Below are positions 2,178 through 62,371 of a DNA stretch of 64,000 nucleotides, piece by piece. The stretch is from an uncultured Acidobacteriota bacterium. Lineage in GTDB: Bacteria > Acidobacteriota > UBA4820 > DSQY01. A program made the position numbers and the translations under genes. Each line of letters opens with the position of its first letter. Position 1 is the first letter of the stretch. Location of the stretch: assembly GCA_963772255.1 (NCBI GenBank), contig CAVYWK010000029.1, forward strand, positions 404,645-468,644, given 5' to 3'. The notes under the pieces were generated by a model. It was not told the DNA's origin, made no database searches, and saw only the letters and a list, made by a program, of their open reading frames with translations.

Positions 2178-2191
2178 CTTCGGCGGAAATC

Positions 2192-2233: not shown

Positions 2234-2302
2234 GATGAGTTCTTCCTCCGCTCCCCGCTCACGGCTCCTCACTCCCGAAAGGTTTTTCTTGAGAGGACAA
2301 CC

Positions 2303-4971
<2,669 letters not shown>

Positions 4972-8702: not shown

Positions 8703-9607
8703 CGTCCCCCCGGAATGGTGAGAAAGTGCCTCGGCAAGACCAGGAGGTCGTCAAACATCTTCAGGGACAGCGCGAGGAGCAGGAGGGCCAGCACGACTTT
8801 CAGCTGGTTGCCCTTGATGGCTCTGGCCGCGCGCGCGCCCGCCTGGGCGCCCAAGGTGGCGCCGAGCAGGAGGCCCACCGCGAGGAAGGCGTCCACGGTG
8901 TGGTTGACGCTCGCCTGCATGACCGTCACGGCGGCGGAGGTGAAGAGCATCTGAAAGAGGCTCGTTCCGATGACCACGCGGATAGGCATGGCGAGAAAGT
9001 AGGACATGGCGGGGATCAGAAAGAATCCGCCTCCCACGCCAAGAAAAGCCGCGAGCATGCCCACGAGGGCGCCCAGGATGAAGGGGGCGATGGCGCTGGT
9101 TCGCACTCCCGAGGTGGGAAAGTTGGTGGAAAGAGGGAAGCGTTGGAGAAGGCGGTACCCGGGCGACTCGGACTGGGGCTCGTCTTCCCCCTTGACCTGG
9201 CTCGCCAGCCCTTCCACGAAGAGGACCACGCCCATGACGGCAAGGAGGGCCACGTAGCCCAGGACGATGACCACATCGGCGTTGCCCCCGCCTCGGAGGG
9301 CCTTCACGAGAAGCGTTCCCACTCCGCCTCCGAGCACGCCTCCCGCGAGCATGAGGGTGCCCATCTTCACATCCACATTTCGGGCCCTGAGGTGGGCCAT
9401 GGTCCCGGAGGCGCTGGCCCCGACGATGGCGTTGGTCCCCGAAGCCGCCGCCACGAGCGGATCGATGCCCAGCATGATGAGGAGGGGAGTCAGCAGGAAT
9501 CCACCGCCCACGCCCAGGAGCCCAGACATGAAACCCACGAGGGCGCCGAGGCCCAGGAGGATCGCGGCGTTGATGTTCGAGCCTGCCACGGGCAGAAAGA
9601 TGTCCAT
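8699..9607 (-). CDS. TauE/SafE (TSUP) family anion permease, copy 1
   Basis: Starts MDIFLPVAGSNINAAILLGLGALVGFMSGLLGVGGGFLLTPLL and has the second-half repeat AAFLGVGGGFFLIPAM. It is a close paralog of 34325-35239. Confidence 0.85.
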   Translation of the reverse strand: MDIFLPVAGSNINAAILLGLGALVGFMSGLLGVGGGFLLTPLLIMLGIDPLVAAASGTNAIVGASASGTMAHLRARNVDVKMGTLMLAGGVLGGGVGTLLVKALRGGGNADVVIVLGYVALLAVMGVVLFVEGLASQVKGEDEPQSESPGYRLLQRFPLSTNFPTSGVRTSAIAPFILGALVGMLAAFLGVGGGFFLIPAMSYFLAMPIRVVIGTSLFQMLFTSAAVTVMQASVNHTVDAFLAVGLLLGATLGAQAGARAARAIKGNQLKVVLALLLLALSLKMFDDLLVLPRHFLTIPGGR

Positions 9608-9724
9608 GCGCCTCCGTACGGGTACCTCGGGACGAGCCGGCGAGCTGCGAGGGAACCTGAGCCCCACGGCAACTTTCGTCAGTCCGCTCGCCGCCGGGAT
9701 CATCCCTTTTCAAATTGTAACCCA

Positions 9725-10220
9725 AAAGGGAAGTCTGGCCTCCCCACAGAACGACAGGGGAATCTTGATATGAGAAGACGATGACGACATAGGATCTGAG
9801 TGGTCCGCTTGAGCTTCCGGCTCACGCGTGCCGATCTGTGACGACAGAGCGATAAGGAGCCAGGGCGAGGAGAAAGTCCACGGTGTGGTTCATCCAGGAC
9901 TGCATGACCGTGACGTTCAGGCAGGTGAAGAGGATTTGGAAGAGGCTGGTGCCGACGACCACGTGCATGGGCATGCGCAGCAGGTAGACCATGACGGGAC
10001 CATGATGAATCCGCCGCCCACCCCATGATCGCCGCCAGCACGCCGACGAGAATGCCAGGAAAAGGGGAACCAGGGCGGAAGGGTGATCGGGAGCGCTCGA
10101 ATTCCATCTTGAAGGGAAGCTCCGACGATGCGGCGTAGATGGACGACCTCGGGCGCTGCCGCGCCGTCGCTCTGTTCTTCCCGCAGGCCTGCACGCTGTC
10201 GCCAGGGCCGGCGCACGCGC
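9725..10220 (-). pseudogene. 5'-truncated, multiply frameshifted fragment of a TauE/SafE permease
   Basis: The pieces ELPFKMEF...FPGILVGVLAAIMG, GGGFIMVP, VMVYLLRMPMHVVVGTSLFQILFTCLNVTVMQSWMNHTVDFLLALA and IGTRVSRKLKRTTQIL sit in different frames. They align colinearly with the C-terminal half of the permease at 34325-35239. There is no room for the N-terminal half. Confidence 0.7.
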
Positions 10221-10367
10221 CGGCCCTGTTCGTTGCGGTACCCCGCTGGCTTCGGGGGACTTCGAATGCTCTGTCCAATGCGGCGGATTCCGCACGCCGG
10301 GACAGAACGCCAGATGCGGGATCCCGAATATCTTGGCCCGGCTGGGCAAATCGTTCCTATGGAATTT

Positions 10368-10712
10368 CTAGGTCCCCTTCTTGTCACGCTCCTTTTGCTG
10401 GGTCAGGTTCATGACGCGCAGTGCCATGTTCCTTCCGGCTTCGACCCGGTAGACGAGGCGGACCTCGTCGCCCACCTCCGGCTGAGCCCCGATTTCGGCC
10501 TTGCCGATGTCGAAGGTCATGGGTGCTTGGTCGGTCTTTCTTTCGTCCTGCAGGGTGATCGTCTTGGCGTCGCGGTCCACGCTCACCACCGGACCCTGAA
10601 CCACGGGGGAGGGCGGTGCGCAGGCCAGTCCCAGCCCCAGGCCCAGAACCACGAGCAGGAGCCACATGGAAACCGTTGCGGTCCTCGCGACAACCCGATT
10701 AGCGTCCCTCAT
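10368..10712 (-). CDS. Small exported protein, hypothetical
   Basis: Has the hydrophobic leader MWLLLVVLGLGLGLACAPP followed by a beta-rich domain. It overlaps the upstream permease end by 14 nt. The start is uncertain, and the lipobox match is imperfect. Confidence 0.5.
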   Translation of the reverse strand: MRDANRVVARTATVSMWLLLVVLGLGLGLACAPPSPVVQGPVVSVDRDAKTITLQDERKTDQAPMTFDIGKAEIGAQPEVGDEVRLVYRVEAGRNMALRVMNLTQQKERDKKGT

Positions 10713-11718
10713 GGTTCGACCTCTTGGCCCTGAGCTCCTTGGCCGCTCCCCTGAACATTCCCACGATGACCACGCCCGTCATGATGGTGACGGCCGTCAT
10801 GATCACCCAGGAGGCCGCGCCTCCCAGACCCATCTGCTTCAAGATCACCGAAACCATGGCGCAGACCACGGTGGCGCCGAACATGAGCCGGATGCCGTAG
10901 CCCCGGATGTACTTGGTCGCGATGGTGCCGACCATGGCGCCGGGCGCCGCTCCCGCGAGCATGATGAGCACGGCGAGCAGTTCGATGCGTCCCTTGATCC
11001 CGTACGTGAACGCGCCGTAAAACCCGGCAAGCATGATGGTGAAGAGGTCGGTCCCCACGGCCACGTAGGTGGGGCACCCGATGAGGTACACCAGGGCGGG
11101 CATCATGAGCAGGCCGCCTCCGATACCCAGGAACCCCGCCAGGAGACCCACCATGAATCCCACGGCGGCGGGCAGCCAGAGGGAGCACTCCACGCCCGCC
11201 ATGGGCAGCTTCACCATGGGGGGGATTTTGATCTTATGGAGGGTTTCGTGCCACGTGATGGCGGATTTGGACTCGTCCTCGCCGGCCTTGTCCATCTGCC
11301 TCTTCTTGGCGAAATCGTAGAAGACCAGCAGGCCGATGAGGGCCAGGAAGACCACATAGACCCAGCGGATCACCGGACCCGCCAGGCCGAATCTCTCCAG
11401 ATACATGACGGCGCGAGCGCCTATCTCGATGCCGACCACGTCGAAGGACAGCATGATCAGGCCAAGCTTCACGTCCACGTTCCCGAACTTGGCGTGCCGG
11501 CGGGTCGAGATGATGGACTTGCCCGCCATGTGGCACAGGTCCGTACCCACGGCGAAGGGCATGGGGAAGCCGAAGATGTTCAGCGCCGGCGTGACCATCC
11601 AGGCGCCTCCCATGCCGAAGAACCCTCCGAGCACGCCCACGGCGACGCCGAGCAGGACGAGAAGGAGGGGGTTGATGGCCACGCCCGAAATCGGCAGCGT
11701 AATCGTCAGAAAGTCCAT
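10699..11718 (-). CDS. TauE/SafE (TSUP) family permease, long type (339 aa), copy 2
   Basis: Contains GVLGGFFGMGGAWMVTPALNIFGFP and AGFLGIGGGLLMMPALVYLIG with a central insert. It is the closest match to 61165-62241. Confidence 0.85.
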   Translation of the reverse strand: MDFLTITLPISGVAINPLLLVLLGVAVGVLGGFFGMGGAWMVTPALNIFGFPMPFAVGTDLCHMAGKSIISTRRHAKFGNVDVKLGLIMLSFDVVGIEIGARAVMYLERFGLAGPVIRWVYVVFLALIGLLVFYDFAKKRQMDKAGEDESKSAITWHETLHKIKIPPMVKLPMAGVECSLWLPAAVGFMVGLLAGFLGIGGGLLMMPALVYLIGCPTYVAVGTDLFTIMLAGFYGAFTYGIKGRIELLAVLIMLAGAAPGAMVGTIATKYIRGYGIRLMFGATVVCAMVSVILKQMGLGGAASWVIMTAVTIMTGVVIVGMFRGAAKELRAKRSNHEGR

Positions 11719-12303: not shown

Positions 12304-13386
12304 ATGATGCCGGAAAGCTTGTCGAGGGGGCGAACCATGGGCAGGACGCGCGGGAGAGCCAGGGGACTTTGGGAGCCCAGCCGGCTCCTGAAGCGGACCA
12401 TTTTGGCCCTCCTTCTCACTCCCCCCGCATGCCTCATGCTCTTCGCCCTGGCCGTCCTCTTTTGGGGTCCCCACCGCTCGGCCGCGTTCTTCATCCCCCT
12501 CGTGACGGCGCTGGCTCTCTCCACGGCCCTGGGCTGGCCCCTCGCCGCCAAGCTGCGGCGTCAGCTCACGGCCCTCGCCAGGCAGCGCGACGCCTTCTAC
12601 GAGGAACTCCTTCGCCTCTCCAAGGCCGCAAGCCTGGGGGAAGTGGCCTCCAGCATCGCCCACGATCTGAACAATCCTCTGGCCATCATGCGGGAGGAAG
12701 CGGGCTGGATTCAGGACCTGATGAAGGGCGGGGACCTTCAGGGCGCGCACACCCAGGCGGAGATCGCCAACTCGCTTCAACAGATCGACATCCAGATCGA
12801 GCGTTCCAGGGAAATCACGCGGCGCCTCCTCCAGTGGGGGCGAGACTCCGCGCCCCCGACCCAGTCGGTGGACGTGAATCTCCTCCTCAACAAAACGCTT
12901 TACCTCCTGGAAAGCGAGCTTCAGACCGCCAGCGTCAACGTGGTCAAAGACCTTCCGCCGGGCCTTGCCCATGTGCGAGGTGGGGCTCCAGAATTGCGGC
13001 AGGTGTTCTTGAACCTCATGAAGAACGCCCTGGACGCCATGAAGGACCGCGGCGGCACCCTCACGCTGGTGACCCGCCCCGAGCCCGACGGCGTGAGAAT
13101 CGAAATCACCGACACGGGTCAGGGCATTCCGGCCGCCGCCATGGAGCACATTTTCGAACCCTTTTTCACCACCAAACCCGCCAGCGACGGTACCGGCCTC
13201 GGCCTGCCCATCAGCCGCTGGATCGTGGAGAAGCTCGGCGGACGCATCGAAGTGGAGAGCCGCGAGGGAGCGGGAACGTCTTTCCAGGTGACATTACCGG
13301 CCCAGCCCATCACACCAGACATGGCCCCGACGGTTGGTCGCGACCAAAGTGTCGTGGAGGTAGCCAAAGCGTCGCCCGGAGCCTGA
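12304..13386 (+). CDS. Membrane histidine kinase with a minimal sensor (2 TM / HisKA / HATPase)
   Basis: H-box SSIAHDLNNPLAIM, N-box FLNLMKNALDAM, and G-boxes DTGQGIP and GTGLGLPISRWIV. Confidence 0.85.
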   Translation: MMPESLSRGRTMGRTRGRARGLWEPSRLLKRTILALLLTPPACLMLFALAVLFWGPHRSAAFFIPLVTALALSTALGWPLAAKLRRQLTALARQRDAFYEELLRLSKAASLGEVASSIAHDLNNPLAIMREEAGWIQDLMKGGDLQGAHTQAEIANSLQQIDIQIERSREITRRLLQWGRDSAPPTQSVDVNLLLNKTLYLLESELQTASVNVVKDLPPGLAHVRGGAPELRQVFLNLMKNALDAMKDRGGTLTLVTRPEPDGVRIEITDTGQGIPAAAMEHIFEPFFTTKPASDGTGLGLPISRWIVEKLGGRIEVESREGAGTSFQVTLPAQPITPDMAPTVGRDQSVVEVAKASPGA

Positions 13387-13489
13387 TATGTTGTCCTCGG
13401 GTGACCTTAGCCGGTCATCCTGAATACCGCCCCGGGGGGACTCCCCGAGAAGGATCTCAAGTTTGGCGTCCCACTCAACGGAGGCACTC

Positions 13490-13906
13490 ATGACCCGGCC
13501 CATTCGTCTGCTCATCGTGGATGATGAGAAACGCCTCGTGGAAACATTGTCCAAACGGCTCACCGCCAGGGGGCTTTACGTGGAGGGCGTGCACTCGGGC
13601 GCCGAGGCGCTGGCCCTGGCACAGGCCAAGCCCTTCGACGTGGCGCTGCTGGACGTCCGCATGCCCGTCATGGACGGCATCACCGTCCTGCGCGAGATTA
13701 AAAAGATCCAGCCCCTGCTGCAGGTCATCATGCTCAGCGGCAACGCCTCCATCAACGCGGCCGTGGAGGGGATGCGGCTCGGCGCGGTGGAGTACCTGCT
13801 CAAGCCGGCCAACATCGAAGATGTTCTCGCCAAAATCGAGGAGGCATTCAACAAGAAGCGCCTCCAAGAAGAACGCCAGGCGGCACAGCGGGAGCCCGGA
13901 GGTTAG
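13490..13906 (+). CDS. Stand-alone receiver-domain response regulator (no output domain)
   Basis: Contains MTRPIRLLIVDDEKRL...DVALLDVRMPVMDG...MLSGN...YLLKP. The ORF-track start is 13463; I prefer the ATG at 13490. Confidence 0.85.
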   Translation: MTRPIRLLIVDDEKRLVETLSKRLTARGLYVEGVHSGAEALALAQAKPFDVALLDVRMPVMDGITVLREIKKIQPLLQVIMLSGNASINAAVEGMRLGAVEYLLKPANIEDVLAKIEEAFNKKRLQEERQAAQREPGG

Positions 13907-13912: not shown

Positions 13913-16558
13913 ATGAACTTGCGGCGATTCTTCCGACGACTCCTGGGGAGGGACCGGTGGAAGCCCCTGGAGGCGCGTCCCGATGCCAGGGCGGCGCTCC
14001 ATCTTCAGTACCTCACCTTCAAGGACCTCATCACGTCCAACGACGAGATCCTTGAAGTGATCGCCGACATGGAAAAGAAGCTGGAGGGCCGAACCACCTT
14101 CGGCATGACGTTCGTCCGCTCCAGGTCCGTCACCGCAGCGAGCCACGCCTACCGCATGATCCAGAACCTTAACGCCCTGTCCCATCGCCGTTACCAGGAA
14201 CTGTATGTGCGGTTTGCGGATATCCAGCAGTCGGTGGAGCGAGTCCTGGCCAGAGATCCGGGGCGGGAGAGGGGACCCCTCGTCCTGCCTCTGGAGTCCG
14301 TAACCCTGGATCACTTGGACCGGGTGGGCGGCAAGAGCGCGAACTTGGGGGAAATGAAGAATCGGGCCGGGCTCCCCGTGCCCGAGGGCTTCGCCATCAC
14401 GACCGGCGCTTGCATTGAATTTTTTGAGGCCAACCAGCTCCAGGACGAGATCCGCGCTCTGCTGTTGGGGCTCGATGTGGAGGACCTGCAGTCCGCCTCC
14501 GGAACCAGCGAGACCATTCGCCAGGCCATCCTGGCGGCGGTCCTTCCGCCCCGGATCGAAGCGGCCATTCTCGATGGTTACGCGCACCTGTCCTCCTCCT
14601 TGGGTTCCGGGCCGCGGGTCGCACTCCGGTCGAGCGCCCTCGGAGAAGACGGCGAATTGTCTTTTGCGGGACAGTACGTGAGCCTCCTGAACGTCCCGGC
14701 GGGCGAAATCCTGGCCGCCTACAAGGACGTCATCGCGGGGCTCTACACCCCCAGGGCCATCTGCTACCGGGCCATCAAGGGCATTCCCGACGAAGACGTC
14801 CCCATGGGCGTCTCCTGTCTGGCCATGGTGGACGCCGTGGCCAGTGGCGTGGCCTGTTCGGTGGATCCCAACCGTCCGGATGTGCGGCGCATGGTCATCA
14901 ACGGAGCCTGGGGCCTGGGCATCGGTACGGTGGATGGTTCGGTGAGCCCCGACACCTGGACCGTCTCCAAGGGCGAGCGGAATTCCGTCATGGCCCGCAT
15001 CGCAGGTTCCAAGGAGACGAGCGTGGAGTCACTGTCCCAGGGGGGCGTGGAGGCCGTGCCCGTACCCTCCGAACTCAGGCCTTCCCTGTGCCTCACCGAC
15101 GTGCAGGTGGAGGACCTGGCCCGCCTCGTGCAAGCCGCGGAGAGCCACTACGGCGTGCCCCAAGAGGTCGAGTGGGCGCTGGATCGGTCGGGACGGCTCT
15201 TCCTCCTCCAGGCCAGGCCACTCCATGCCAGTTCCCGGTGGACGGAAAAGGAAGAGGCACCCGGGGAAGTGGAGGGACACGCCCTGCTGCTGTCCGGGGT
15301 CTCGGCCTCCACCGGCTGCGGCAGCGGGCCCGCGTTCCTGTCCTTCGGTCCCGATGACATCGGGGGGTTCCCCGAGGGCGCGGTCCTCGTAGCCCGCCAC
15401 TCCCACCCGCAATATGTCCGGGTCATGGACCGGGCGTCCGCCATCGTGGCGGACATCGGCGCTCCCACCGGGCACATGGCTTCCCTCGCGAGGGAGTTCG
15501 GCATCCCCGCCGTGCTGGATGCGCACCGCGCGACGGCCGTCCTCAAGCCCGGCGATGTGGTCACCGTGGACGGCAACCGCGGTGCGGTCTATGAGGGCCG
15601 GGCGGAAGGCCTGCTTGCCGAGCAGGGGGAGCGGGGACCCAAGGGTATGTCGGGAACGCCCGTTCACTCGGTATTGACGGAGGTTTCCAGGCATGTCGTG
15701 ACCCTCAACCTCACCGATCCCAAATCGCCCGACTTCAGCGCCGGGTCGTGCCGGACGTTTCACGACATCGCGAGGTTTGTACACGAGAAGGCCTTCGAGG
15801 AGATGTTCCGAGTCAGCGACCATGTGTCCTACGAGGAACTCCGCTCCCTGCCCCTTTCGGCGCGGCTGCCCTTCACGGTGTACCTCATCGACCTGGGCGG
15901 AGGGCTGAATCGGCGGCCAGGGGCGCTGAACGTGAAGCAAGAGGAGGTCACCTCCCTGCCCATGACGGCCCTGCTGGCGGGCATGACCAACCCCGAGCTG
16001 CGCTGGTGGCAGCCGAAGGCGCTCAGCGTGAGCGGGGTCGCCTCGGTGACGACGCAGGCGATCTTCACGCCCTTTGTGGAATACGGGGAGAGAAAGCTCG
16101 GGGATCGGAGCTACGCCATCGTGGCGGAAGCCTACTGCAACTTCAGCTCGCGCATCGGCTACCATTTCGCGGCCGTGGATTCCTACTGCGGCGATTCCCC
16201 CAGCCGCAATTACATCAGCTTCCGATTCAAGGGTGGGGCCGCGGACGAGGCGCGCCGGGTCAACCGGTGCGTCCTTCTGGAGCGGATCCTGCTGGGCATG
16301 GACTTCCAGGTGGAGAGGCAGGGGGACCTGGTGAACGCCAGGATCAGGAAGTTCAGCATGGAATCCACGCTCAAACGCCTGGACCAGTTGGGCCGGCTCA
16401 TCGTCGCCACCCGCCAGCTGGACATGAGGATGGGGCAGCGATCCTCCGTGGACTGGTACGCCAAGGCGTTCACGGAGGGCAACTACCTGTTCGATCCCGA
16501 TTTTCATTCGGACACCGGCCGGAAGGACCCCTCGAGAATCGAGGTCCAGGAGTGTTGA
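13913..16558 (+). CDS. PpsA-like phosphotransferase: N-terminal helical region, PPDK_N-type ATP-grasp, phosphohistidine swivel, then an unrecognised ~300 aa C-terminal domain (copy 1)
   Basis: Contains GGKSANLGEM, RSSALGEDGELSFAGQY and the swivel histidine TGHMASLAREFGIPAV. The C-terminus (LNLTDPKSPDF...CRTFHDIARFVHEKAFEEMF...YHFAAVDSYC...NYISFRFKGGAA) lacks the PEP/pyruvate TIM-barrel motifs I can recognise. Confidence 0.8.
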   Translation: MNLRRFFRRLLGRDRWKPLEARPDARAALHLQYLTFKDLITSNDEILEVIADMEKKLEGRTTFGMTFVRSRSVTAASHAYRMIQNLNALSHRRYQELYVRFADIQQSVERVLARDPGRERGPLVLPLESVTLDHLDRVGGKSANLGEMKNRAGLPVPEGFAITTGACIEFFEANQLQDEIRALLLGLDVEDLQSASGTSETIRQAILAAVLPPRIEAAILDGYAHLSSSLGSGPRVALRSSALGEDGELSFAGQYVSLLNVPAGEILAAYKDVIAGLYTPRAICYRAIKGIPDEDVPMGVSCLAMVDAVASGVACSVDPNRPDVRRMVINGAWGLGIGTVDGSVSPDTWTVSKGERNSVMARIAGSKETSVESLSQGGVEAVPVPSELRPSLCLTDVQVEDLARLVQAAESHYGVPQEVEWALDRSGRLFLLQARPLHASSRWTEKEEAPGEVEGHALLLSGVSASTGCGSGPAFLSFGPDDIGGFPEGAVLVARHSHPQYVRVMDRASAIVADIGAPTGHMASLAREFGIPAVLDAHRATAVLKPGDVVTVDGNRGAVYEGRAEGLLAEQGERGPKGMSGTPVHSVLTEVSRHVVTLNLTDPKSPDFSAGSCRTFHDIARFVHEKAFEEMFRVSDHVSYEELRSLPLSARLPFTVYLIDLGGGLNRRPGALNVKQEEVTSLPMTALLAGMTNPELRWWQPKALSVSGVASVTTQAIFTPFVEYGERKLGDRSYAIVAEAYCNFSSRIGYHFAAVDSYCGDSPSRNYISFRFKGGAADEARRVNRCVLLERILLGMDFQVERQGDLVNARIRKFSMESTLKRLDQLGRLIVATRQLDMRMGQRSSVDWYAKAFTEGNYLFDPDFHSDTGRKDPSRIEVQEC

Positions 16559-19152
16559 TCGATCAGGTCCGCGGCTTTCTCAAGACCCGCTTCGGCCGGC
16601 TCTCGGAGGAGGAGGCCCGGAGCCGGCTGGCCCTGAAGTACGCCGCGTTCAAACGGCTCGTGGACGCCAACACGGCGGCCCTGGAGGTCATGGCGGACAT
16701 GCAGGCCAAAGCCACCGGCGAGTACCTGTTCGACCGGGCCTATGTGGACGAGTCCTTCGCGCGCCTTTCGGAACTCACTTCCGGCGTCGTACAGGATCTT
16801 CAGGATCTCTCGGACGGCCGTCACAAGGCGCTGAGCGCCGCCATGGAACAGGTGGCGAGCGCGGCCAGGCAGACCGCGGGAGAGGCACAGCGCCAGCACG
16901 GCGGCCCCGCGGTCATCGACCTGTCCTCCCTGAAAGGCGCGCCCCTCGAGCTCGTGGGCGGAAAGGTCCAGCGCCTCGGGGAGATCATGACCGAGGTGGG
17001 ACTCCCCGTACCCGACGGGTTCTGCGTCACCACCGCCGCGTGCGGCCTCTACCTCGAACAGAAAGACCTTCTGGGCGCCATCCGTGATCACATCGCCCAG
17101 ATCTCCCTCAAGGACAAGGAGGAGCTCAACAGGGCGAGTCAGGCCATCAAGTCGGCGATCATGGATGCCTCCTGGCCCGATGCCGTGTCGAAGTCCATCC
17201 TGGCGGCGTACGATGCCCTGGCCCACCGCGTGGGCCGCGGGGCGGGCCAGGACCTGAGGGTCTCGGTGCGGTCCAGCGCGGTGGGCGAGGACGGCGACTT
17301 CAGCTTCGCCGGGCAGTTCGACACCGTTCTCAACGTGAGCCGGGATGACTTGCTCCGAACCTGCCAGGAGGTTTTGGCGAGCCAATTCGGTCCGAGGGCG
17401 CTGGTCTACTTCAAGGCCAGGGGGGTGGGCGCCGGCGTCCTTCCCATGGCCATCGGCGTCGTCGCCATGCTCGACGCCCGCGCCAGCGGCGTCCTCTACA
17501 CGCGCGACCCCCAGGAGCCCGAATCGGACGCCCTCGTCGTGGCCGGGCTCTGGGGATTGGGCAGCCTGGCCGTGGACGGCTCCGTCAACCCCGACGTCTT
17601 CACCCTTTCGCGCGATCCGGAGCCTTCGCTTCGTGAGACGAAGGTGTCCGCCAAGAGCCGAATGTTGCTCTGCCGGGAAACCACGGGTCTGGTCGAAGTC
17701 GAGGTCCCCGGATGGATGAGGGACCAGCCCTGCCTGAGCAAGGACCAGGTCGCCCTCCTGGGCGCCTACGGCAAGAAGTTGGAGGAGCACTTCTCCAGGC
17801 CGCAGGATGTGGAATGGGCCTTGGATGCGAAAGACGATCTGTACATCCTCCAATCCAGGCCCCTGAGGATCGCCCCTTCGGTGAAACCCGGACAGAATGT
17901 GATGGCGCTGAGGCAGGGATTGACCCCCCTCCTTCAGGGCGGCGTCGTGGCCTGCAAGGGCTGCGCCGCCGGCCTCGTGCACGTGCTCTCCTCGGAGGAC
18001 GACGTGCACCTCGTCCCCCCCGGCGCCGTCGTGGTCGCCAGGTCCGCATCCCCGAAGCTGGCGGAGGCGCTGGACCGAGCCGCCGCCATGGTGACCGACG
18101 CGGGTTCCGCCGCCAGCCACCTGGCGACGGTGGCCAGGGAGTTCGGGATCCCCTCCATTTTCGGCGCACCGTCGGCCACCAGCCTTCTCAGGCAGGGCAT
18201 GATGGTGACCGTGGACGCGGATCTCGGAAATGTCTACGAAGGACGCGCCGAGGCCCTCCTCCAGGGCACGGCCAAGCACCCGGTCCACGCCGAAGAGTCA
18301 CCCCTCCTGAAGAGGTTCCGCGCGAGCCTCGCACACGTGACGCCTCTCCACCTGACCGACCCCCGAAGCCCCGGCTTCAAAGCCTCGAAGTGCAGGACGC
18401 TCCACGACATCCTCAGATTCGCCCACGAGATGGCGGTGGAGGAGATGTTCCTGGCCGGGAGCTTGGCGTCCAGGGGCACGAGGCATGCCCTGAGGCTGAA
18501 GAGCGCCTTGCCCGTGGACTTCTTCTTCATCGATCTGGGCGGAGGTCTGGGCGCCCTTCCGGAGGGGGGCCAGGTGACCCCTGAGGTCTTCGTGTGCCGT
18601 CCGCTGATCCCCTTGTGGCGCGGGATGGTGCAGGCGCCGTGGAGAACCGACGCGGCGGCGGGCGCAGGCGATATGGCCTCCCTGTTCGCGAACACGATGA
18701 CCGCGAGGGACGCCCTGGAGCAGGCCGCCTCGCCCAATTTCGTGATCGTGTCCGACGCCTATCTCAACCTGAGCTTCCGGCTCGGATACCACTTCTCCCG
18801 CGTGGACGCCTATCTCTCCGGCCGCGTCGAAGACAACTACGCGAGCTTCCTGTTCCACGGTGGAGCGGCGAACCTGGCCGGAAAGACGCGCAGGATCCGG
18901 TTCCTCGCGGGGGCGTTGGAGGCGGCCGGATTTCAAGTCCACCACCGGGAGGACGCCCTGTTCGCCCGGACCGGCCATGCCCAAGCCGCCGAAATGGACC
19001 GCAGGCTGGAAGACCTGGGAAGGCTCCTGGTGATCACGAGGCAGGCCGATACCCTCTTCGGCGACGAGACCGAAGTGGACAGGGCCCTGGCGGCATACCG
19101 GGCGGGCGACCTCTCTCTGGGGTTCCGGCCGGAAGGGGAGGGGACCCCATGA
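16552..19152 (+). CDS. PpsA-like phosphotransferase, copy 2, translationally coupled to copy 1
   Basis: The GTG at 16552 overlaps the upstream stop (GTGTTGA). Contains GGKVQRLGEI, RSSAVGEDGDFSFAGQF, the swivel histidine ASHLATVAREFGIPSIFG, and the same C-terminal family (CRTLHDILRFAHEMAVEEMF...YHFSRVDAYL...NYASFLFHGGAA). Confidence 0.8.
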   Translation: MLIDQVRGFLKTRFGRLSEEEARSRLALKYAAFKRLVDANTAALEVMADMQAKATGEYLFDRAYVDESFARLSELTSGVVQDLQDLSDGRHKALSAAMEQVASAARQTAGEAQRQHGGPAVIDLSSLKGAPLELVGGKVQRLGEIMTEVGLPVPDGFCVTTAACGLYLEQKDLLGAIRDHIAQISLKDKEELNRASQAIKSAIMDASWPDAVSKSILAAYDALAHRVGRGAGQDLRVSVRSSAVGEDGDFSFAGQFDTVLNVSRDDLLRTCQEVLASQFGPRALVYFKARGVGAGVLPMAIGVVAMLDARASGVLYTRDPQEPESDALVVAGLWGLGSLAVDGSVNPDVFTLSRDPEPSLRETKVSAKSRMLLCRETTGLVEVEVPGWMRDQPCLSKDQVALLGAYGKKLEEHFSRPQDVEWALDAKDDLYILQSRPLRIAPSVKPGQNVMALRQGLTPLLQGGVVACKGCAAGLVHVLSSEDDVHLVPPGAVVVARSASPKLAEALDRAAAMVTDAGSAASHLATVAREFGIPSIFGAPSATSLLRQGMMVTVDADLGNVYEGRAEALLQGTAKHPVHAEESPLLKRFRASLAHVTPLHLTDPRSPGFKASKCRTLHDILRFAHEMAVEEMFLAGSLASRGTRHALRLKSALPVDFFFIDLGGGLGALPEGGQVTPEVFVCRPLIPLWRGMVQAPWRTDAAAGAGDMASLFANTMTARDALEQAASPNFVIVSDAYLNLSFRLGYHFSRVDAYLSGRVEDNYASFLFHGGAANLAGKTRRIRFLAGALEAAGFQVHHREDALFARTGHAQAAEMDRRLEDLGRLLVITRQADTLFGDETEVDRALAAYRAGDLSLGFRPEGEGTP

Positions 19153-20957
19153 GGCGCCTTTACCCAGTTCTTCGCATGCTGCCGTTCCTGGGCATTCTGG
19201 CCACGGCCTTGCTGCTGATTTTCGCGTTCGTGCTGGGGCTGGTGTCCTTCGGCAAGATGCGCCAGGTGGTCACGGAGGAGTTCAACGGCCAGCAGCTCGT
19301 TCTGGCGCAGAACCTGGCGGCGCTCATCCAACAGGACCTGGATTTCCTGCGCCGCGAGTTGACCGTGCTCAACCTCTCGCCCTCCGTCCAGTACAGCGAA
19401 TCGCCCTCGCTGGTGAGCCGCCTGAAGGTGACTCTGGGCTCCATTCAGGAGGGCGAGCTTCTGGAAATCCGCCGCGTCTCAGCCGATGGAATGGAGGCCG
19501 TCGTCCTGGACCGTTCGGGCGTGGTCAGGACCGAACCGGGGCCCTTCACGGACGACCCCTGCTTCATCTGGGGGGTCTCTCCGAGAAACCGCGGCCGCAT
19601 CCTCATGGGCGAGCCGTCGCGACATTTGCTGGAGCGTTATGGCGGCCGACCCCTGATGGTCATGGCCATCCCGCATTACCAGACCTCTTCGGACGAGGCC
19701 CACCCCCATCCCACGGGGCAATTCTCCGGCGCGCTCATGTTCGTGCTCGACGCGTCGGCCATCGCCGGCAGGTTCACCGACCACGCCCGTTCGGGCAACA
19801 CGGGGTATGCCTGGGTCATCGACGAGCACGGGACGTTTCTCGCGCATCCCATGAACTCGTTCGTGGGGAAGAACGCCTTCACGGTTCGGACGCAGCTCAA
19901 CCCCTCCATAGGATTCGAGGGGATCAACGCCATCATGAGCGACCGGATGCTCACGGGCCAGGAGGGCACGGGCTCCTATATCTCCGGCTGGCACCGCCAG
20001 GCCGTCGGGCCCATCCACAAGCTCATCGGATTCTGCCCCGTCCGCATCGATCCGGAGCGGCCCAACCGGCGGTGGTCCGTGGCGGTAGTTGCCCCGGTGA
20101 GCGAGGTCCACGGGCTGGTGGCATCGCTCTTCATGCGCCAATTCTTCATGCAGGCCGCCATCGTCTTGGCCATCCTGGCCGGCGGCCTGTCGCTCTTCCG
20201 GCTGGAACGCCACTGGACGCGGATCAAGAAGCAGCGCGAGCGGGAGGTCAACCTCAGTTCGAGGCTCGCGTCCCTGGGCATGCTGTCCGCGGGCGTGGCC
20301 CACGAGATCAACAACCCCATCGCCATCATTCTCGGATTCACGGATGTCCTGCTCGAGGAAACTCCGCCGGACACGAAGGCTTACGGGCATCTCAAGATCA
20401 TCGAGCGGCAGGGCCTGGCCTGCAAAAAGATCGTGGAGAACTTGGGGCGCTTCGCCAGGATTCCCGAACAGCGCGACGAGACGACGGATCTCAACGAAGA
20501 GGTGCGCCGCGTGCTGTCCATGGTCCAGAACACGCTCCTGACGGAGAAGGTCGAGTGTCACGCCGAACTCCATGAGGATTTGCCCCGGGTCATGGGCGAT
20601 CCCCAGGGTCTCCAGCAGGTTCTTTTGAACCTCATCACCAACGCCCGAGGGGCCATGAAGAAGAGCGGGGGTACCCTCACGGTGGAGACGCGCAGGCTGG
20701 ATGACCGTGTGGCCGTGTCCGTGAGCGACACGGGCCATGGCATCCCCAAGAAAGACCTGGGGCGGATTTTCGACCCCTTCTTCACCACCAAAGCTCCAGG
20801 AGAAGGGACGGGGCTCGGCCTCTCCATCAGCCACGGCATCGTCGAGAAGGCCGGGGGAAAAATAACCGTGGAGAGCACCCACGAGGACGATGCAGGTGCC
20901 GGGCACTCCGGTACGACCTTTACCGTGGTCCTGCCCGTCGTGGCCCAGAAATCCTGA
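19149..20957 (+). CDS. Sensor histidine kinase with a Cache-like extracytoplasmic domain
   Basis: ATGA overlap with the upstream stop. Has a TM segment, then GYAWVIDEHGTFLAHPMNSFVGKNAF, a second TM segment, H-box GVAHEINNPIAII, and G-box GTGLGLSISHGIV. Confidence 0.85.
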   Translation: MRRLYPVLRMLPFLGILATALLLIFAFVLGLVSFGKMRQVVTEEFNGQQLVLAQNLAALIQQDLDFLRRELTVLNLSPSVQYSESPSLVSRLKVTLGSIQEGELLEIRRVSADGMEAVVLDRSGVVRTEPGPFTDDPCFIWGVSPRNRGRILMGEPSRHLLERYGGRPLMVMAIPHYQTSSDEAHPHPTGQFSGALMFVLDASAIAGRFTDHARSGNTGYAWVIDEHGTFLAHPMNSFVGKNAFTVRTQLNPSIGFEGINAIMSDRMLTGQEGTGSYISGWHRQAVGPIHKLIGFCPVRIDPERPNRRWSVAVVAPVSEVHGLVASLFMRQFFMQAAIVLAILAGGLSLFRLERHWTRIKKQREREVNLSSRLASLGMLSAGVAHEINNPIAIILGFTDVLLEETPPDTKAYGHLKIIERQGLACKKIVENLGRFARIPEQRDETTDLNEEVRRVLSMVQNTLLTEKVECHAELHEDLPRVMGDPQGLQQVLLNLITNARGAMKKSGGTLTVETRRLDDRVAVSVSDTGHGIPKKDLGRIFDPFFTTKAPGEGTGLGLSISHGIVEKAGGKITVESTHEDDAGAGHSGTTFTVVLPVVAQKS

Positions 20958-20997: not shown

Positions 20998-21402
20998 ATG
21001 ACAGAGAAGCTTCTGATCTTGGACGATGAAGTGGACATGCTCACGCTGCTGGAGACCATCATCCGCGCCAAGACTCCCCACGATGTGGTAGCCACCAACA
21101 ATCCCCTGGAGATCGAGGAACTGATGGCCACCCACTCCTTCTCGCTCGTCATCTCGGACTTGAAAATGCTCGGCAGGGACGGGTTGGAGGTCATCGATAT
21201 CGTCCATCGGGCCGATGCCACCATCCCGGTGATCATCATCACCGCCTACGGCAGTCTGGAGTCCGCCCAGGAGGTCGTGCGCCACGGCGCCTACGACTAC
21301 ATCACCAAGCCCTTCAGAAAGGAGCAGGTTCTCATCACCATCGAACGCGCCATGGAATGGAGGCGCATCACGCTCGAAAATCTCAGGCTCAAGGAGAAAT
21401 AG
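20998..21402 (+). CDS. Stand-alone receiver-domain response regulator
   Basis: Contains MTEKLLILDDEVDML...LVISDLKMLGRDG...IIITAYGS...YITKP. Confidence 0.85.
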   Translation: MTEKLLILDDEVDMLTLLETIIRAKTPHDVVATNNPLEIEELMATHSFSLVISDLKMLGRDGLEVIDIVHRADATIPVIIITAYGSLESAQEVVRHGAYDYITKPFRKEQVLITIERAMEWRRITLENLRLKEK

Positions 21403-21486: not shown

Positions 21487-22326
21487 ATGGCGATCATTAC
21501 GGTTTCCAGGGGATCCTTGGGCTTGGGCGCGTCGCTGGCGGAGAATCTCGCCGGGGTGCTGGGATACCCGTGCTTGGGACGCGAGGTCGCCCTTGAAGTG
21601 GCGGAAAAGGTCGGGATTTCGCCGGCGCTCATGATGAAGAAGGTCGAAGAGAGTCCGAACCTCTGGGAGAGGATGACCACGGAGCGCAGGGCCTATGTCA
21701 TCGCCATGCAGGTGGCCCTCTCTGAACGGGCCATGGGGGGCCAGCTCGTCTACCACGGGTATGCGGGAAATCTCCTTTTGAAAGGAATGCCCGCGCTGCT
21801 GAGGGTGCGGGTCATCGCTCCCATGGAGGTCCGCGTGCCCATGGTCATGGAGGAGCGGCACCTGGGGCCGGAGGAGGCGGAGGCGCACATCAAGGAGATG
21901 GATGACACGCGGGCCCGATGGACGAAATTCGTCTTTGGCGTGGACTGGCGGGACCCCTCTCTCTACGACCTCGTCCTGAACCTCGGCGTCATTTCCGTGG
22001 GTACGGCCTGCGAAGCCTTGGCAGGCATCGCGCGGAGCGCGGAATTGGCGGTGGACGAGGCGGTCCTGGGCAAATTGCGCGACTTCGTGTTGGCCTCGCG
22101 GATCCGGCTGGCGCTCGTCACCAGCCACCTGTCGGGGGCGGCCGACCTGGATGTGGAGGTCCAGGATGGCATCGCATTCATCAGGGGCGACATCCCGAGG
22201 GATCCCCGATACGCCAATTCGGAGGCCCGTTTCACGAAAGCGCTCACCGACCTGGTCCTCTCCATCAAGGGCGTGAAGCACCTCACGCTGGGCGTCAGAG
22301 CCCTCCCCTCAGCGGCAGTGGATTGA
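21487..22326 (+). CDS. Cytidylate-kinase-like (Cytidylate_kin2-type) protein with a BON-like C-terminus, copy 1
   Basis: The N-terminus MAIITVSRGSLGLGASLAENLAGVLGYP has a degenerate P-loop with no GK[ST]. Also contains LRVRVIAPMEVRV...RARWTKFVFGVDWRDPSLYDLVLN, and the C-terminus DLDVEVQDGIAFIRGDI...IKGVKHLTL. Confidence 0.7.
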   Translation: MAIITVSRGSLGLGASLAENLAGVLGYPCLGREVALEVAEKVGISPALMMKKVEESPNLWERMTTERRAYVIAMQVALSERAMGGQLVYHGYAGNLLLKGMPALLRVRVIAPMEVRVPMVMEERHLGPEEAEAHIKEMDDTRARWTKFVFGVDWRDPSLYDLVLNLGVISVGTACEALAGIARSAELAVDEAVLGKLRDFVLASRIRLALVTSHLSGAADLDVEVQDGIAFIRGDIPRDPRYANSEARFTKALTDLVLSIKGVKHLTLGVRALPSAAVD

Positions 22327-22349: not shown

Positions 22350-23866
22350 ATGGCGGACATCAAACCGGACTTGACCAAGGTGGTGCTGGACCCGGCCCTG
22401 GCCGAAAGGCTGAGGACCGCCCAAGACTTCATCGTCTCCCGGCCCAGGATCAGCATTCGGCTCCGGTTCATGGTCAGCCTGGCCCTGTGCTTCTGCCTCT
22501 GCGCCCTGGCCGCCCTCGTCAACTGGACCTATCTCCACCAGGTGCGCAGCCGCCTCCTCCTCCTGGGAACCACCGAGAGCGTCGCCTTCGATCTCGAACA
22601 GGCCCGCCGCTTTGAAAAGGACTTTTTCCTCTACGGCACGAATCTCGACGATGCGGTACGGTACGCCGAATCCGCCGCGACGCGCCTCCAGTCCGAGACA
22701 CCGCAAATAACCGAAGCGGCCGCGCCCGGCGAAGTACTCGCCATCGCGGGACACCTCCGGGAGTACCGCCGATCTGCTTACCTACTGCCAGGCCATGGCG
22801 CGAGCCAGAATCCTGGATCCGTCGCGAAGGCAGGCGATCGAGGCCAGCCTCCGCCAGCAGGGATCCACGGTGACGGCGCTCGTGGAGGAATTGACCTCCC
22901 GCGAGCGGAAGACCGTGACCCACATGCTCAAGGTCTCCGAGACGCTGCCCATGGTTCTGCTCATCGCCCTGCTCATCTTGTTCGTCCTCATTTCCTACTT
23001 CTTCACGGAGGCCCTCCTCAATCCCATTCGCAGGTTTCAGGCCTATACCCGCCGCATCGCGGAGGGTGACTTCACGCTGATCCGCCCCGCGAGGACCTAT
23101 CGGGACGAATTTTCCGACCTGGCCCTCGCCGTCAACCGCATGCTGGCCGACCTCCAGGCGACCCAGCAGCGGTGCGTGGAGGCAGGAAAGCTGGCCGCCG
23201 TCGGAACCATCACCTCGGGCATCGCCCACGAGATCAACAACCCGCTGAACAACATCTCGCTGACCACCGAAGCGCTCATGGAGGATTTCAAGACCATGAG
23301 CGACGAAAAGAAGTGGAATTTTCTGCAGGACATCTATTTCGAAACCGAGCGGGCCAGTGAAATCGTCAAGAGCCTCCTGGATTTCACGCGCACGGAAAAG
23401 ATCGAGCGAGTCCCGCTGGATGTGAGCGGTGTGGTCCTGAGCACGCAGAGGTTGCTCCAGAACGAAATGATGCTCAACGGCGTGATTTTCGACTGCGACC
23501 TTCCCTCAGGACCTTCCCCAGATCAAGGGAGCCGCGAACCAGCTCCGTCAGGTCTTCCTGAACCTGTTCATCAACGCCATCCACGCCATGCCCCGCGGCG
23601 GAACCCTGCGCGTCAAGGCCAGCCTCCACGAGGAGGAGCGGGTATGCGTGGAGGTTCAGGACCAGGGCGAGGGGATTCCCCCGGAGGTCCTGCCCCACGT
23701 GTTCGATCCTTTCTTCACGACGAAGGAGCCCGGGAAAGGGACGGGCCTGGGACTCTCCGTGAGCTTGAGCATCATCAGGAGGCACGGCGGCGACATCAAG
23801 GTGGAGAGCGAGCCGGGCAAAGGGACCACTTTCCATGTTTGCCTGCCCCGGGCGGACAGGGCATAA
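22350..23866 (+). CDS. Sensor histidine kinase, paralog 2 of 3, with two apparent frameshifts (about 22769 and about 23505)
   Basis: Three colinear frames carry, in order, QARRFEKDFFLYGTNL; then HAMP, H-box GIAHEINNPLNNI; then QVFLNLFINAIHAMPRGGTL...GTGLGLSVSLSII. Together they give the full architecture of 6227-7852. Confidence 0.8.
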
Positions 23867-23893
23867 TGGAGAGAGACTGAGGGAGACCGCCGA

Positions 23894-24259
23894 ATGACGA
23901 CCGAGAGGCGAGTGCTGGTTCTGGATGATGAACCCATCGTAGGGGACAGGCTGAAGGACGCCTTTGAGAAGGAGGGGCTGGAGGTCGAGGTTTTCAGGGA
24001 CAGTGGACAGGCCATCGAGCGTCTCAAGGAGCAGGCTTTCGGCGTGCTTGTGACCGACATGAAAATGAGCGGGCCTTCGGGGATGGACGTGCTCAGATTC
24101 GTGAAGGAGAAAAACCCCTCCACCAGCGTCATCGTCATCACCGGTTACGCCACCATCGAAACCAACTACGAGGCCCAGGCTCTGGGTGCGGACCACTTCG
24201 TCCCCAAACCCTTCAAGATGAAGGACCTGGTCAAGCTCGTTCTGAAGGCTTTCAACTAG
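23894..24259 (+). CDS. Stand-alone receiver-domain response regulator
   Basis: Contains RRVLVLDDEPIVG...VLVTDMKMSGPSG...VITGYAT...FVPKP. Confidence 0.85.
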   Translation: MTTERRVLVLDDEPIVGDRLKDAFEKEGLEVEVFRDSGQAIERLKEQAFGVLVTDMKMSGPSGMDVLRFVKEKNPSTSVIVITGYATIETNYEAQALGADHFVPKPFKMKDLVKLVLKAFN

Positions 24260-25809
24260 GACCGGTCCTGACCCCGGGCATCGGACTCCGAACGGGGCTG
24301 CCCGAGCTCGGGCACCCTAGCCGCGGGGAGCACGACGATCAACTCGGTGTGCTTGCCCGGAGAGCTCTCGGCGCGTATGTCCCCTCCGTGTTGCCGCACG
24401 ATCCCCAGGCTCACCGAGAGTCCCAGCCCAGTACCCTTGCCCTTGGACTTAGTCGTGAAGAACGGGTCGAAGATATAGGGGAGGATGTGGCTCGGAATCC
24501 CCTTGCCGTCGTCGGAGACGATCACCTGCAAGTAACCGGGTTCCCGCGCCGCCTCGGCCTTGATCCAAACGTGGCCCCCCTTCCCGACGGCGTCCACGGC
24601 GTTCAGGATTAAATTCAGGAACACCTGCGAGATGGATTGTCGGTCGCCGTGAATAGGCGGCAGGTTCTCGGGCACCTCCATGAGGATCTTGGCGCCCGAG
24701 AGTTTGATCTGGTTGGCGGCCAGATTGGCCGTTCCCCGAAGCAGCTCTCCCACGTCCAACCGCTCGGTGCGGATCTCGCTCTCCCTGGCAAAATCCAGCA
24801 GGTTTCGCACGATTCGCTGCGCCCGGCTGCCCTGGTCCACCAGGTCGTCCACCATGGCCAGCTTTTCGGCGTCCGGCAGGACGGGGAAATCCTCCTTGAG
24901 CATCTCGGCGGTCAGGATGATGTTGTTGATGGGGTTGTTCAACTCGTGAGCCACGCCCGCCGTCAGGGTTCCCACGGCCTGGAGCTTGTGGGACTGAACC
25001 AGAACCTCCTGGCGGTGGGCCACCTCCCGCATCATGGTGTTGAGCGCCACGGCCAGGTCCGAGAACTCGTCCCGATACCTTCGGGCCGGTGCGATGGGCG
25101 TAAAGTCCCCCATGGAAATGCGCTGGGTCGTGGCCATGAGGCGGCCCAGGGGCCCCAGCATCTGCCGCGCGAGAAAGTTCACGATGACGGCCATCAGCAC
25201 CAGGAGAACGATCAGGAAAAGGACGGGCAGACGCTTGAAGAGCGCCAGTGTCTGGTTGACGCTGTTCCTCTCCTTCTGCGCCAATTCCAGGGCGAAGGCC
25301 ACCATCTGAGAGCCGTGGGCCCTCAATTCCGTCTCGATGGAGCTTTTCCTTTCGGCTTGGTCAGGAGGCCCCCGTTTCGCCATCTCCGCCAGATTTCCGA
25401 GCAGCGTCTCGTATCGATCGAGGTGCTCTCTCATGCGCCTGAGATCCGCCGTCGTGAGGACCTTGAACGCCTCGGACTCTGACGAATTGAGGAGGATGCG
25501 GGCGTTGGCGATGTGTTCCTGGACGTCCTGCAGGTTGGTGCCGTACAGGAAGTAGTTCTTTTCGAAGCGCCGCGCTTGCTGGATTTCCAGGGTATACCGA
25601 TCCGCCACCTCCAGAAACTTGAGACGGACCTCGAGCCTGGACAGCATGATCCATGCTGCGGCGGTCACCGCGGCCGCCACGAGGAAGAGGGCGAGCAGTC
25701 CCAAAGAGAGCCTCGCCCTGATCCCGAAACTGGGCCTCTGGAGGAGGGCCCTCTCGGCGTTCGTGATCTCGACCGGCTCGGGTATCTCGGGAGGCGCGGG
25801 TACCGTCAT
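24256..25809 (-). CDS. Sensor histidine kinase, paralog 3 of 3
   Basis: Sensor motif QARRFEKNYFLYGTNL, HAMP-like RRYRDEFSDLAVALNTM, H-box GVAHELNNPINNI, and G-box GTGLGLSVSLGIV. Confidence 0.85.
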   Translation of the reverse strand: MTVPAPPEIPEPVEITNAERALLQRPSFGIRARLSLGLLALFLVAAAVTAAAWIMLSRLEVRLKFLEVADRYTLEIQQARRFEKNYFLYGTNLQDVQEHIANARILLNSSESEAFKVLTTADLRRMREHLDRYETLLGNLAEMAKRGPPDQAERKSSIETELRAHGSQMVAFALELAQKERNSVNQTLALFKRLPVLFLIVLLVLMAVIVNFLARQMLGPLGRLMATTQRISMGDFTPIAPARRYRDEFSDLAVALNTMMREVAHRQEVLVQSHKLQAVGTLTAGVAHELNNPINNIILTAEMLKEDFPVLPDAEKLAMVDDLVDQGSRAQRIVRNLLDFARESEIRTERLDVGELLRGTANLAANQIKLSGAKILMEVPENLPPIHGDRQSISQVFLNLILNAVDAVGKGGHVWIKAEAAREPGYLQVIVSDDGKGIPSHILPYIFDPFFTTKSKGKGTGLGLSVSLGIVRQHGGDIRAESSPGKHTELIVVLPAARVPELGQPRSESDARGQDRS

Positions 25810-26664: not shown

Positions 26665-26799
26665 GGGCGACCTCCTGCCCCCGCAGTTGCCGGGGCCCAA
26701 AGTTGACTCGGACCGGCGACACCGCTCGCCGGCGATCCCATTCACCGCCACCAACTCCGACCCCGGCTCGATCCTCCCCGGTCCGGCGAAAGGTCGGTC

Positions 26800-34322: not shown

Positions 34323-34324
34323 GG

Positions 34325-62362: not shown

Positions 62363-62371
62363 GAGGGAGCC

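Follow-up and report, generated by a model that had tools for sequence, protein, structure and literature searches.

The ATP-grasp/phosphohistidine dikinase superfamily, which includes PpsA, PPDK, RPH and GWD, combines an ATP-grasp domain and a swivelling histidine carrier in one system. Rifampin phosphotransferase (RPH)-type dikinases, among them phenylphosphate synthase PpsAB, HpeHI/CreHI and PigC/HapC, reuse grasp and swivel on a non-pyruvate acceptor, and in two-component members such as HpeHI the swivel and acceptor are carried on one polypeptide and the ATP-grasp on another (PMC12167813). Here we analyse three members of this superfamily, P1, P2 and P3, encoded in a stretch of 64,000 nucleotides (the window) from an uncultured Acidobacteriota bacterium (contig CAVYWK010000029.1, positions 404,645 to 468,644). 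They share the superfamily chassis and end in a domain for which we found no relative of known structure. With moderate confidence, comparative sequence analysis and structure prediction lead us to read them as ATP-dependent phosphohistidine dikinases with a new acceptor domain and a non-pyruvate acceptor, under two-component control via receiver-only response regulators and tied to anion transport.

A dikinase chassis with an unmatched C-terminal domain

P1, P2 and P3 show the same four-part layout, consisting of a three-helix N-terminal domain of ~115 residues, a PPDK_N ATP-grasp, a phosphohistidine swivel and a C-terminal domain of ~290 residues (Table 1), with pairwise identities of 34-37% over the full length. 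A preliminary description of this DNA had proposed three PpsA-like proteins of 858-881 residues, the first two in a translationally coupled tandem, and had quoted motifs for grasp, swivel and C-domain. The three open reading frames were reproduced, and every quoted motif was found at an exact position in all three proteins. The P1 stop and the P2 start overlap in GTGTTGA, with a GAGG 7 nt upstream of the P2 start, and this overlapping tandem is kept in the Acidobacteriota relatives (loci L004-L012). The G+C content of the window is 62-68%. The common helical N-terminus of the same description appears in the full-length AlphaFold model of P1 (pLDDT 85.4, pTM 0.68) as three long helices (residues 25-57, 65-89 and 96-113); Pfam matches of the N-terminal ~120 residues, at E≤10, were limited to noise (KxDL and Gp6-like, for example).

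The chassis itself is readily recognised. PF01326 (PPDK_N) was detected in P1, P2 and P3 with E-values of 5e-89, 2e-85 and 5e-64, spanning about positions 2-320 of the 328 in the model, and PF00391 (PEP-utilizers swivel) in all three with E-values from 3e-11 to 1e-21. No other credible Pfam family was found in these proteins, and PF02896, the TIM barrel that the preliminary description had named along with those two families, gave no match. The ATP-grasp residues and the swivel histidine are invariant in 48 full-length homologs. Among NCBIfam models, the N-terminal half scores far better with PpsA (E 1e-107) than with PPDK (E 1e-17). The PpsA models NF005057 (361, 338 and 242 bits for P1, P2 and P3; cut-off 598) and TIGR01418 (345, 329 and 230 bits; cut-off 739.75) nevertheless stay below their curated equivalog thresholds, and their alignments stop at model position ~470 of ~790. 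Models of RPH, PigC and RedH were matched in the ATP-grasp part alone, with 205-233 bits for RPH and PigC against cut-offs of 999-1350; the RPH-type model NF041857 gave 215-228 bits (cut-off 999) over model positions 3-321 only. Sequence matches in the PDB (the PEP synthases 9dae, 8a8e and 2ols, and RPH) end at about residues 575-605, the best relatives being PEP (phosphoenolpyruvate) synthases aligned through grasp and swivel only. Likewise, Foldseek aligned the full-length model with 2ols over the 458 columns of grasp and swivel, and recovered HpeI and the ATP-grasp domains of RPH.

The remaining C-terminal domains are homologous to one another (BLASTP E 6e-50 and 6e-68), in agreement with the proposal of a common domain of about 300 residues where the TIM barrel would be expected. 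In isolation they had no Pfam match even at E≤10 and no NCBIfam family, and a profile of 44 sequences searched against the PDB returned only noise at E>1. The AlphaFold2 model of the P1 domain, built with that 44-sequence alignment as input, is confident (pLDDT 84, pTM 0.75) and alpha+beta, running through two long helices, a two-strand element, a four-strand antiparallel meander, a helix, a hairpin and a final helix, with no (beta/alpha)8 pattern. Foldseek found nothing at E≤1e-3 for this model in the PDB (best E 0.044, TM-score ~0.2) or in BFVD (best E 0.015), and the barrels of PpsA, PPDK and Enzyme I (EI) were not matched. The top PDB matches, to RecJ, arginine kinases and the C-Ala domain of AlaRS (E 0.04-0.1, TM-score ~0.2), were judged to be random; arginine kinases recur among them over ~235 aligned columns. 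According to the model, the C-domain is a non-TIM alpha+beta fold, unmatched in these searches, in place of the PEP/pyruvate barrel. An ordinary PEP synthase barrel, which would have weakened the earlier suggestion of a novel substrate, is excluded because PF02896 is absent, the PpsA alignments are truncated and the model contains an antiparallel sheet.

Across 366 aligned sequences, 29 columns of the C-domain are at least 95% conserved, 14 of them polar (in P1 numbering Cys613, His617, Asp618, Arg621, His624, Asp660, Tyr741, Asn743, Tyr750, His751, Asn766, Arg785, Asp805 and Asp837). A G774-G775 loop is located where a strand gives way to a helix, and an Arg-rich helix comes after it. This pattern looks like that of a catalytic or ligand site.

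A widespread family with several architectures

The C-domain profile retrieved 1,616 representatives of 50%-identity clusters at E≤1e-3 and 824 at E≤1e-30, most family members measuring 830-890 residues and carrying the domain at the C-terminus. With one genome taken per GTDB species, a scan confirmed at least 594 loci, a lower bound, among the species representatives of Desulfobacterota and Acidobacteriota. Among the matches listed, the closest loci belong to Acidobacteriota metagenome-assembled genomes (77-80% identity, same synteny) and the others to Desulfobacterota, including Desulfobulbus elongatus DSM 2908, Nitratidesulfovibrio sp. HK-II and Pseudodesulfovibrio pelocollis; cluster members of the window TauE are named Thermoanaerobaculaceae. 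Databases call these proteins 'phosphoenolpyruvate synthase', 'pyruvate, water dikinase' or 'PEP/pyruvate-binding domain-containing protein', and our literature search found no paper describing the family, nor one on DUF4881. By homology, P1, P2 and P3 are members of a large, widespread and uncharacterised family of PpsA-type phosphohistidine enzymes ('water dikinases'). Sulfate-reducing lineages account for hundreds of genomes in which one to three copies bear the automatic name PEP synthase although they cannot be that enzyme, which distorts reconstructions of gluconeogenesis and pyruvate metabolism.

In a survey of 398 family proteins the complete layout was found in 230, a grasp-less N-swivel-C layout in four and an N-C-only layout (~392 residues) in at least nine. 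An example of the last, P0096, matches P1 with E 3e-7 in the N-domain and E 2e-55 in the C-domain. The N-swivel-C protein P0233 (539 residues), whose locus is the sole readable one of its kind, is encoded directly behind a full-length paralog of 852 residues, an arrangement in favour of hetero-oligomers as well as of the C-domain acting as acceptor. The N-C proteins P0082 and P0096 are directly followed by a receiver-only response regulator gene, whose start abuts the stop of P0082 and lies ~50 nt from P0096. Both are divergent from a TauE-Alph_Pro_TM pair, the same pair that is found upstream of P3 in the window.

Longer and shorter variants were also observed. Six proteins of 1,038-1,072 residues (P0218, P0232, P0236, P0246, P0253 and P0255) and the 661-residue fragment P0254 contain an additional C-terminal region of ~200 residues. 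There, four of the seven gave weak matches to ConA-like lectin/glucanase families (Glyco_hydro_59_C, Laminin_G_3, 3keto-disac_hyd), and P0232, P0253 and P0255 had no Pfam match. Three Desulfobulbaceae loci, all on the + strand (L030, 10213-12384; L034, 11018-12778; L042, 11029-13116), show the tandem pair followed by a shorter third protein with a partial PPDK_N; a swivel was detected in two of the three third proteins and an N- or C-domain in none, and a receiver-only response regulator comes next in each.

Conserved partners of the family

Conservation of the context was evaluated in the 52 loci measuring 15 kb or more, counting features within ±10 kb and using the window proteins as phmmer queries on the open reading frames of each locus. 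TauE was present in 81% of them, TauE with the small protein in 69% and all three genes of the TSUP cassette in 63%, while a receiver-only response regulator appeared in 81%, a histidine kinase in 88% and two or more PpsA-like paralogs in 48%. In two loci (L001 and that of P0233) DASS transporters (Na_sulph_symp/CitMHS) and CBS proteins stand in place of TauE. The conserved partners are the three-gene TSUP cassette, or DASS transporters, and pairs of histidine kinase and receiver-only regulator. A general association with PF13189 (Cytidylate_kin2; 8% of the loci) or Alph_Pro_TM (6%) was rejected, as was a general link to aprAB, found within 10 kb in the Acidobacteriota loci L006, L008 and L012 only.

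Among 92 full-length genes, 37 are no more than 400 bp away from a receiver-only regulator gene, on the same strand in 28 cases, and regulators at an equal position relative to the gene are mutual best cross-locus matches in 19 of 22 cases. The regulator preceding P1 shares about 50% identity with those of Desulfobacterota loci, against 30-39% for the window regulators at 20998, 23894 and 27682. These comparisons define a regulator subfamily common to PpsA-like loci across phyla.

The cassette has a possible counterpart in described organisms. Desulfovibrio vulgaris Hildenborough has DVU2956 and DVU2957-2959, a sigma54 'transmembrane transport' operon (PMC4641369). Its TSUP protein, DVU2958, falls in a clade that sulfate reducers conserve and for which a role as sulfate transporter has been proposed (PMC5840216, PMC7531388). 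Of the genes looked for in the literature, DVU2957 appeared in the paper on the sigma54 regulon, and DVU2954, DVU2955 and DVU2959 in none. Nitratidesulfovibrio sp. HK-II has a sigma54 activator ahead of the PpsA-like gene, and its cassette (small protein, TauE, DUF4881) is transcribed divergently from that activator. By gene order alone, the TSUP cassette resembles DVU2957-2959 and the HK-II arrangement resembles DVU2956 with DVU2957-2959, DVU2958 being a putative ortholog of the cassette TauE. In Desulfobacterota loci (L016, 7392-7823, - strand) a universal-stress-protein-like gene sits between cassette and PpsA-like gene, where L078 has a sigma54 activator.

The locus in the window

The features of the window are collected in Table 1. 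Kinases, receiver-only regulators, PF13189 proteins, TSUP permeases and sulfate-reduction genes, all listed as neighbours in the preliminary description, were found there; farther along the window follow sat, a fourth Cytidylate_kin2 gene, dsrMKJOP, dsrC, qmoABC and aprBA. As features of the family, the TSUP part of that neighbourhood held, whereas the PF13189 part did not, and the adjacency to sulfate-reduction genes proved true of the window but, as far as apr is concerned, is limited to Acidobacteriota.

Table 1. Positions of P1, P2 and P3, their domains and motifs, and surrounding genes in the window.
Feature	Position in window	Strand	Residues (P1/P2/P3 for motifs) and remarks
Second TauE permease (8699-9703) with coupled Alph_Pro_TM (7929-8702)	7929-9703	-	
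'orf114', lipoprotein with DUF4881/CusF-like small beta domain	10368-10712	-	cassette gene 3
TauE/TSUP permease of cassette	10699-11718	-	
'orf115', small protein with signal peptide and C-terminal transmembrane segment	11728-12075	-	TSUP cassette gene 1; divergent from the kinase-regulator-P1-P2 string
Histidine kinase (HisKA + HATPase_c)	12304-13386	+	head of the kinase-regulator-P1-P2 string
Receiver-only response regulator	13463-13906	+	147 residues; canonical DD/D/T/K; ends 7 nt before P1 start
P1, PpsA-like	13913-16558	+	881
P1 N-helical domain	13913-14266	+	1-~118
P1 PPDK_N ATP-grasp		+	136-448
P1 swivel		+	486-557
P1 swivel His codon	15473-15475	+	His521
P1 C-domain	15635-16522	+	~575-870
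P2, tandem paralog of P1	16552-19152	+	866; start GTG 16552 or TTG 16555
P2 PPDK_N		+	133-442
P2 swivel		+	489-559
P2 swivel His codon	18118-18120	+	His523
P2 C-domain	18274-19149	+	from ~575
dCache-HisKA-HATPase_c histidine kinase	19200-20957	+	immediately 3' of P2
Receiver-only response regulator	20998-21402	+	
Cytidylate_kin2 (PF13189), P-loop kinase-like	21487-22326	+	lineage-specific association
HAMP-HisKA protein	22795-23880	+	
Response regulator	starts 23894	+	
HAMP histidine kinase	24256-25809	-	downstream of P3
DUF202 protein	25819-26754	-	downstream of P3
Cytidylate_kin2-BON	26800-27618	-	downstream of P3
Receiver-only response regulator	27679-28092	-	downstream of P3
TauE	28118-29209	-	downstream of P3
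Cytidylate_kin2	29258-30796	-	downstream of P3
P3, third paralog	30891-33467	-	858
P3 C-domain	30894-31790	-	~560-858
P3 swivel His codon	31950-31952	-	His506
P3 swivel		-	472-539
P3 PPDK_N		-	128-427
TauE (34325-35239) with Alph_Pro_TM (33528-~34320)	33528-35239	-	directly upstream of P3
GGKxxxLGE			139/136/130
RSSAxGE			239/240/226
Swivel His			521/523/506
C(R/K)(T/S)xHD(I/V)xRFxHE			613/614/593
YHFxxVD			750/746/731
NYxxFxFxGGxA			766/762/747

Several neighbours deserve comment. The HAMP-HisKA protein at 22795-23880 has no HATPase_c in its own frame, and a HATPase_c-like segment is located in another frame (23486-23866), a probable frameshift, due to a pseudogene or an assembly error. On the - strand, TauE-like (residues 203-276) and Alph_Pro_TM-like fragments in 9700-10367 overlap an Arg-rich open reading frame of 192 residues without family match. 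This frame (9703-10278) was rejected as a gene, being apparently composed of those degraded fragments, and the stretch looks like a degraded duplicate of the TauE-Alph_Pro_TM pair.

The fourth Cytidylate_kin2 (PF13189-like) gene, at ~38382-39230 on the - strand, is flanked by sat (37034-38299) and dsrP (39245-40462); a P-loop gene resembling nucleoside monophosphate kinases inside the sulfate-reduction cluster could be related to AMP recycling. Outside the window, single open reading frames of Desulfobulbus loci L040 (16289-17515) and L054 (16332-17555), both on the - strand, match a receiver domain together with Cytidylate_kin2, so that in these loci PF13189 can serve as an output domain of response regulators.

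Just past aprB, on the + strand, the region 59336-63654 comprises an IS1595-family transposase (59336-60340), a TauE (61165-62241), a 234-residue protein without family and a receiver-only regulator (63205-63654). The latter belongs to the same subfamily as the regulator upstream of P1 and is ~47-52% identical to those of Desulfobacterota loci; another module may extend beyond the end of the window. At the other end, alanyl-tRNA synthetase appears to be distributed over two open reading frames (1796-4971, + strand), one with tRNA-synt_2c (1796-3622) and RecX helix matches at its N-terminus, the other with tRNA_SAD and DHHA1 (3982-4971). The split may reflect a frameshift or an over-extended open reading frame.

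Proposed mechanism and alternative readings

In the mechanism that we consider, the ATP-grasp would pyrophosphorylate the swivel histidine, the gamma-phosphate leaving as Pi and AMP being released, and the phospho-His domain would then swing over to the C-domain. There, the site formed by the 14 conserved polar residues and the KGGAAD loop would bind and phosphorylate a non-pyruvate acceptor. The P1-P2 tandem, coupled in translation, is likely to assemble into a hetero-oligomer. The co-encoded two-component systems probably adjust activity via their receiver-only regulators, and the physiological function is likely linked to the anion handled by the adjacent TSUP transporters (DASS in other lineages); the acceptor may be that anion, a compound derived from it or part of the transport system. 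The idea of a new acceptor on a dikinase chassis is consistent with all these observations, the P0233-type N-swivel-C tandem lending it support. Some points weigh against it. N-C-only proteins keep the conserved C-domain residues despite lacking grasp and swivel, which indicates that the C-domain can work without a phospho-His in cis, and a sensor or regulatory role fits them at least equally well. That three paralogs of 35% identity share a near-identical site speaks against a diversification of small-molecule specificities, so dense a two-component context is expected of signalling more than of catabolism, and the clustering of the conserved residues in one pocket is an assumption.

Two other readings assign the proteins a part in regulation or signalling. 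C- and N-domain might sense a cytoplasmic anion or metabolite, or bind a phosphorylated response regulator, with phospho-His passed in trans to a protein (a TSUP or DASS transporter, an accessory protein or a PF13189 protein), thereby tuning, for instance, uptake or export of sulfate, sulfite or thiosulfate. Such a regulatory kinase or sensor of anion transport would account for the linkage to two unrelated anion-transporter families, for the N-C-only forms divergent from TauE-Alph_Pro_TM and for the adjacency of the window system to sat, dsr, qmo and apr, as well as for a cassette similar by gene order to one with a proposed sulfate transporter (PMC5840216, PMC4641369). We regard it as unlikely, since the protein target is hypothetical, the orthology with DVU2958 is putative, the apr adjacency is restricted to Acidobacteriota and PF13189 occurs in few loci. 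The proximity of receiver-only regulators, some overlapping or abutting genes of N-C proteins, the span of their subfamily across phyla and their intact phospho-acceptor residues would also suit a signalling phosphorelay. Grasp and swivel histidine would then act as an unorthodox histidine kinase exchanging phosphate with the aspartate of the adjacent regulators, the N- and C-domains docking or sensing; the Enzyme I of the phosphotransferase system (PTS), where a swivel histidine phosphorylates a protein, offers a precedent. This appears improbable to us: a conventional histidine kinase adjoins each regulator in the window, and such kinases are found in most related loci, which makes an extra kinase superfluous. 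Moreover, the N-C forms have no His carrier altogether, and a polar site of 14 residues exceeds the need of a docking surface.

Two further readings keep the proteins within metabolism. Reactions of the PPDK/PpsA family are reversible, and PPDK in anaerobes forms ATP from AMP. The C-domain might accordingly bind a phosphoryl donor from which ATP would be regenerated, recycling the AMP of adenylylsulfate (APS) reductase, and the window does place these genes next to sat and aprBA, with P-loop genes of the nucleoside monophosphate kinase type nearby, one of them between sat and dsrP. This is highly improbable, as the N-terminal half scores as PpsA instead of PPDK, a donor candidate is lacking and the sulfate-reduction adjacency is not kept outside Acidobacteriota. 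An ordinary PEP synthase whose pyruvate/PEP barrel has diverged strongly, in line with the database names and the PpsA-like domain order, is effectively refuted by the missing PF02896, by NCBIfam scores of 361 against 598 and 345 against 739.75 over the N-terminal ~470 positions only, and by a predicted antiparallel sheet with helices in a protein that aligns with 2ols over only 458 columns.

Returning to the dikinase with a non-pyruvate acceptor, the family offers a candidate acceptor domain, new to the swivelling-histidine chassis, with sharply defined putative catalytic residues. Together with the linkage to TSUP/DASS transporters and to a dedicated receiver subfamily, this opens to experiment the poorly understood regulation by which dissimilatory sulfate reducers control anion uptake. 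A bolder and rather doubtful extension would see in the C-domain a new phosphoryl-acceptor fold defining a fourth dikinase class, after the TIM-barrel, RIF-binding-like and glucan-binding ones. Phosphate would pass to an inorganic or simple sulfur oxyanion, or else to the anion-transport machinery, and the family would constitute a conserved step, regulatory or activating and under two-component control, in sulfate, sulfite or thiosulfate handling. If true, Desulfobacterota and sulfate-reducing Acidobacteriota would have in common a step that pathway maps now lack.

Comparison with known systems

PpsA (TIGR01418/NF005057; 2ols, 8a8e, 9dae) is the closest sequence relative, with which P1, P2 and P3 share the ATP-grasp, the central swivel, the order grasp-swivel-acceptor and probably the chemistry, from ATP through His~PP to His~P with release of AMP and Pi. 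Unlike PpsA, they have an unrelated alpha+beta domain in place of the PF02896 barrel and an added three-helix N-domain, their family scores fall far under the cut-offs, and their context is one of signalling and transport, not gluconeogenesis.

With the RPH-type dikinases the resemblance extends to split two-component versions, paralleled here by N-swivel-C proteins beside full-length paralogs. In those enzymes, however, a RIF-binding-like acceptor domain precedes a C-terminal swivel, whereas here the swivel is central (residues 486-557 of 881 in P1) and the C-domain comes after it. The C-domain gave no significant Foldseek match to RPH structures, and full-length global alignments with them were poor (TM-score 0.43, rmsd 9 Å). 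The analogy with rifampicin phosphotransferase and phenylphosphate synthase drawn in the preliminary description would hold for the mechanism only, the domain order being PpsA-like and the C-domain not detectably RIF-binding-like.

The PTS Enzyme I (PtsI/PtsP) likewise has a swivel phosphohistidine and a helical accessory domain, and its phosphoryl carrier serves a protein partner. Its donor is PEP, bound in a TIM barrel, and it has no ATP-grasp, whereas the donor here would be ATP and the barrel is absent. We place P1, P2 and P3 outside the PpsA and EI families, whose defining acceptor or donor domains were looked for and not found, and probably outside the RPH-type family, whose domain order differs and whose structures gave no significant match to the C-domain; up to the phospho-His step, the best-supported reading is that they work like PpsA and RPH.

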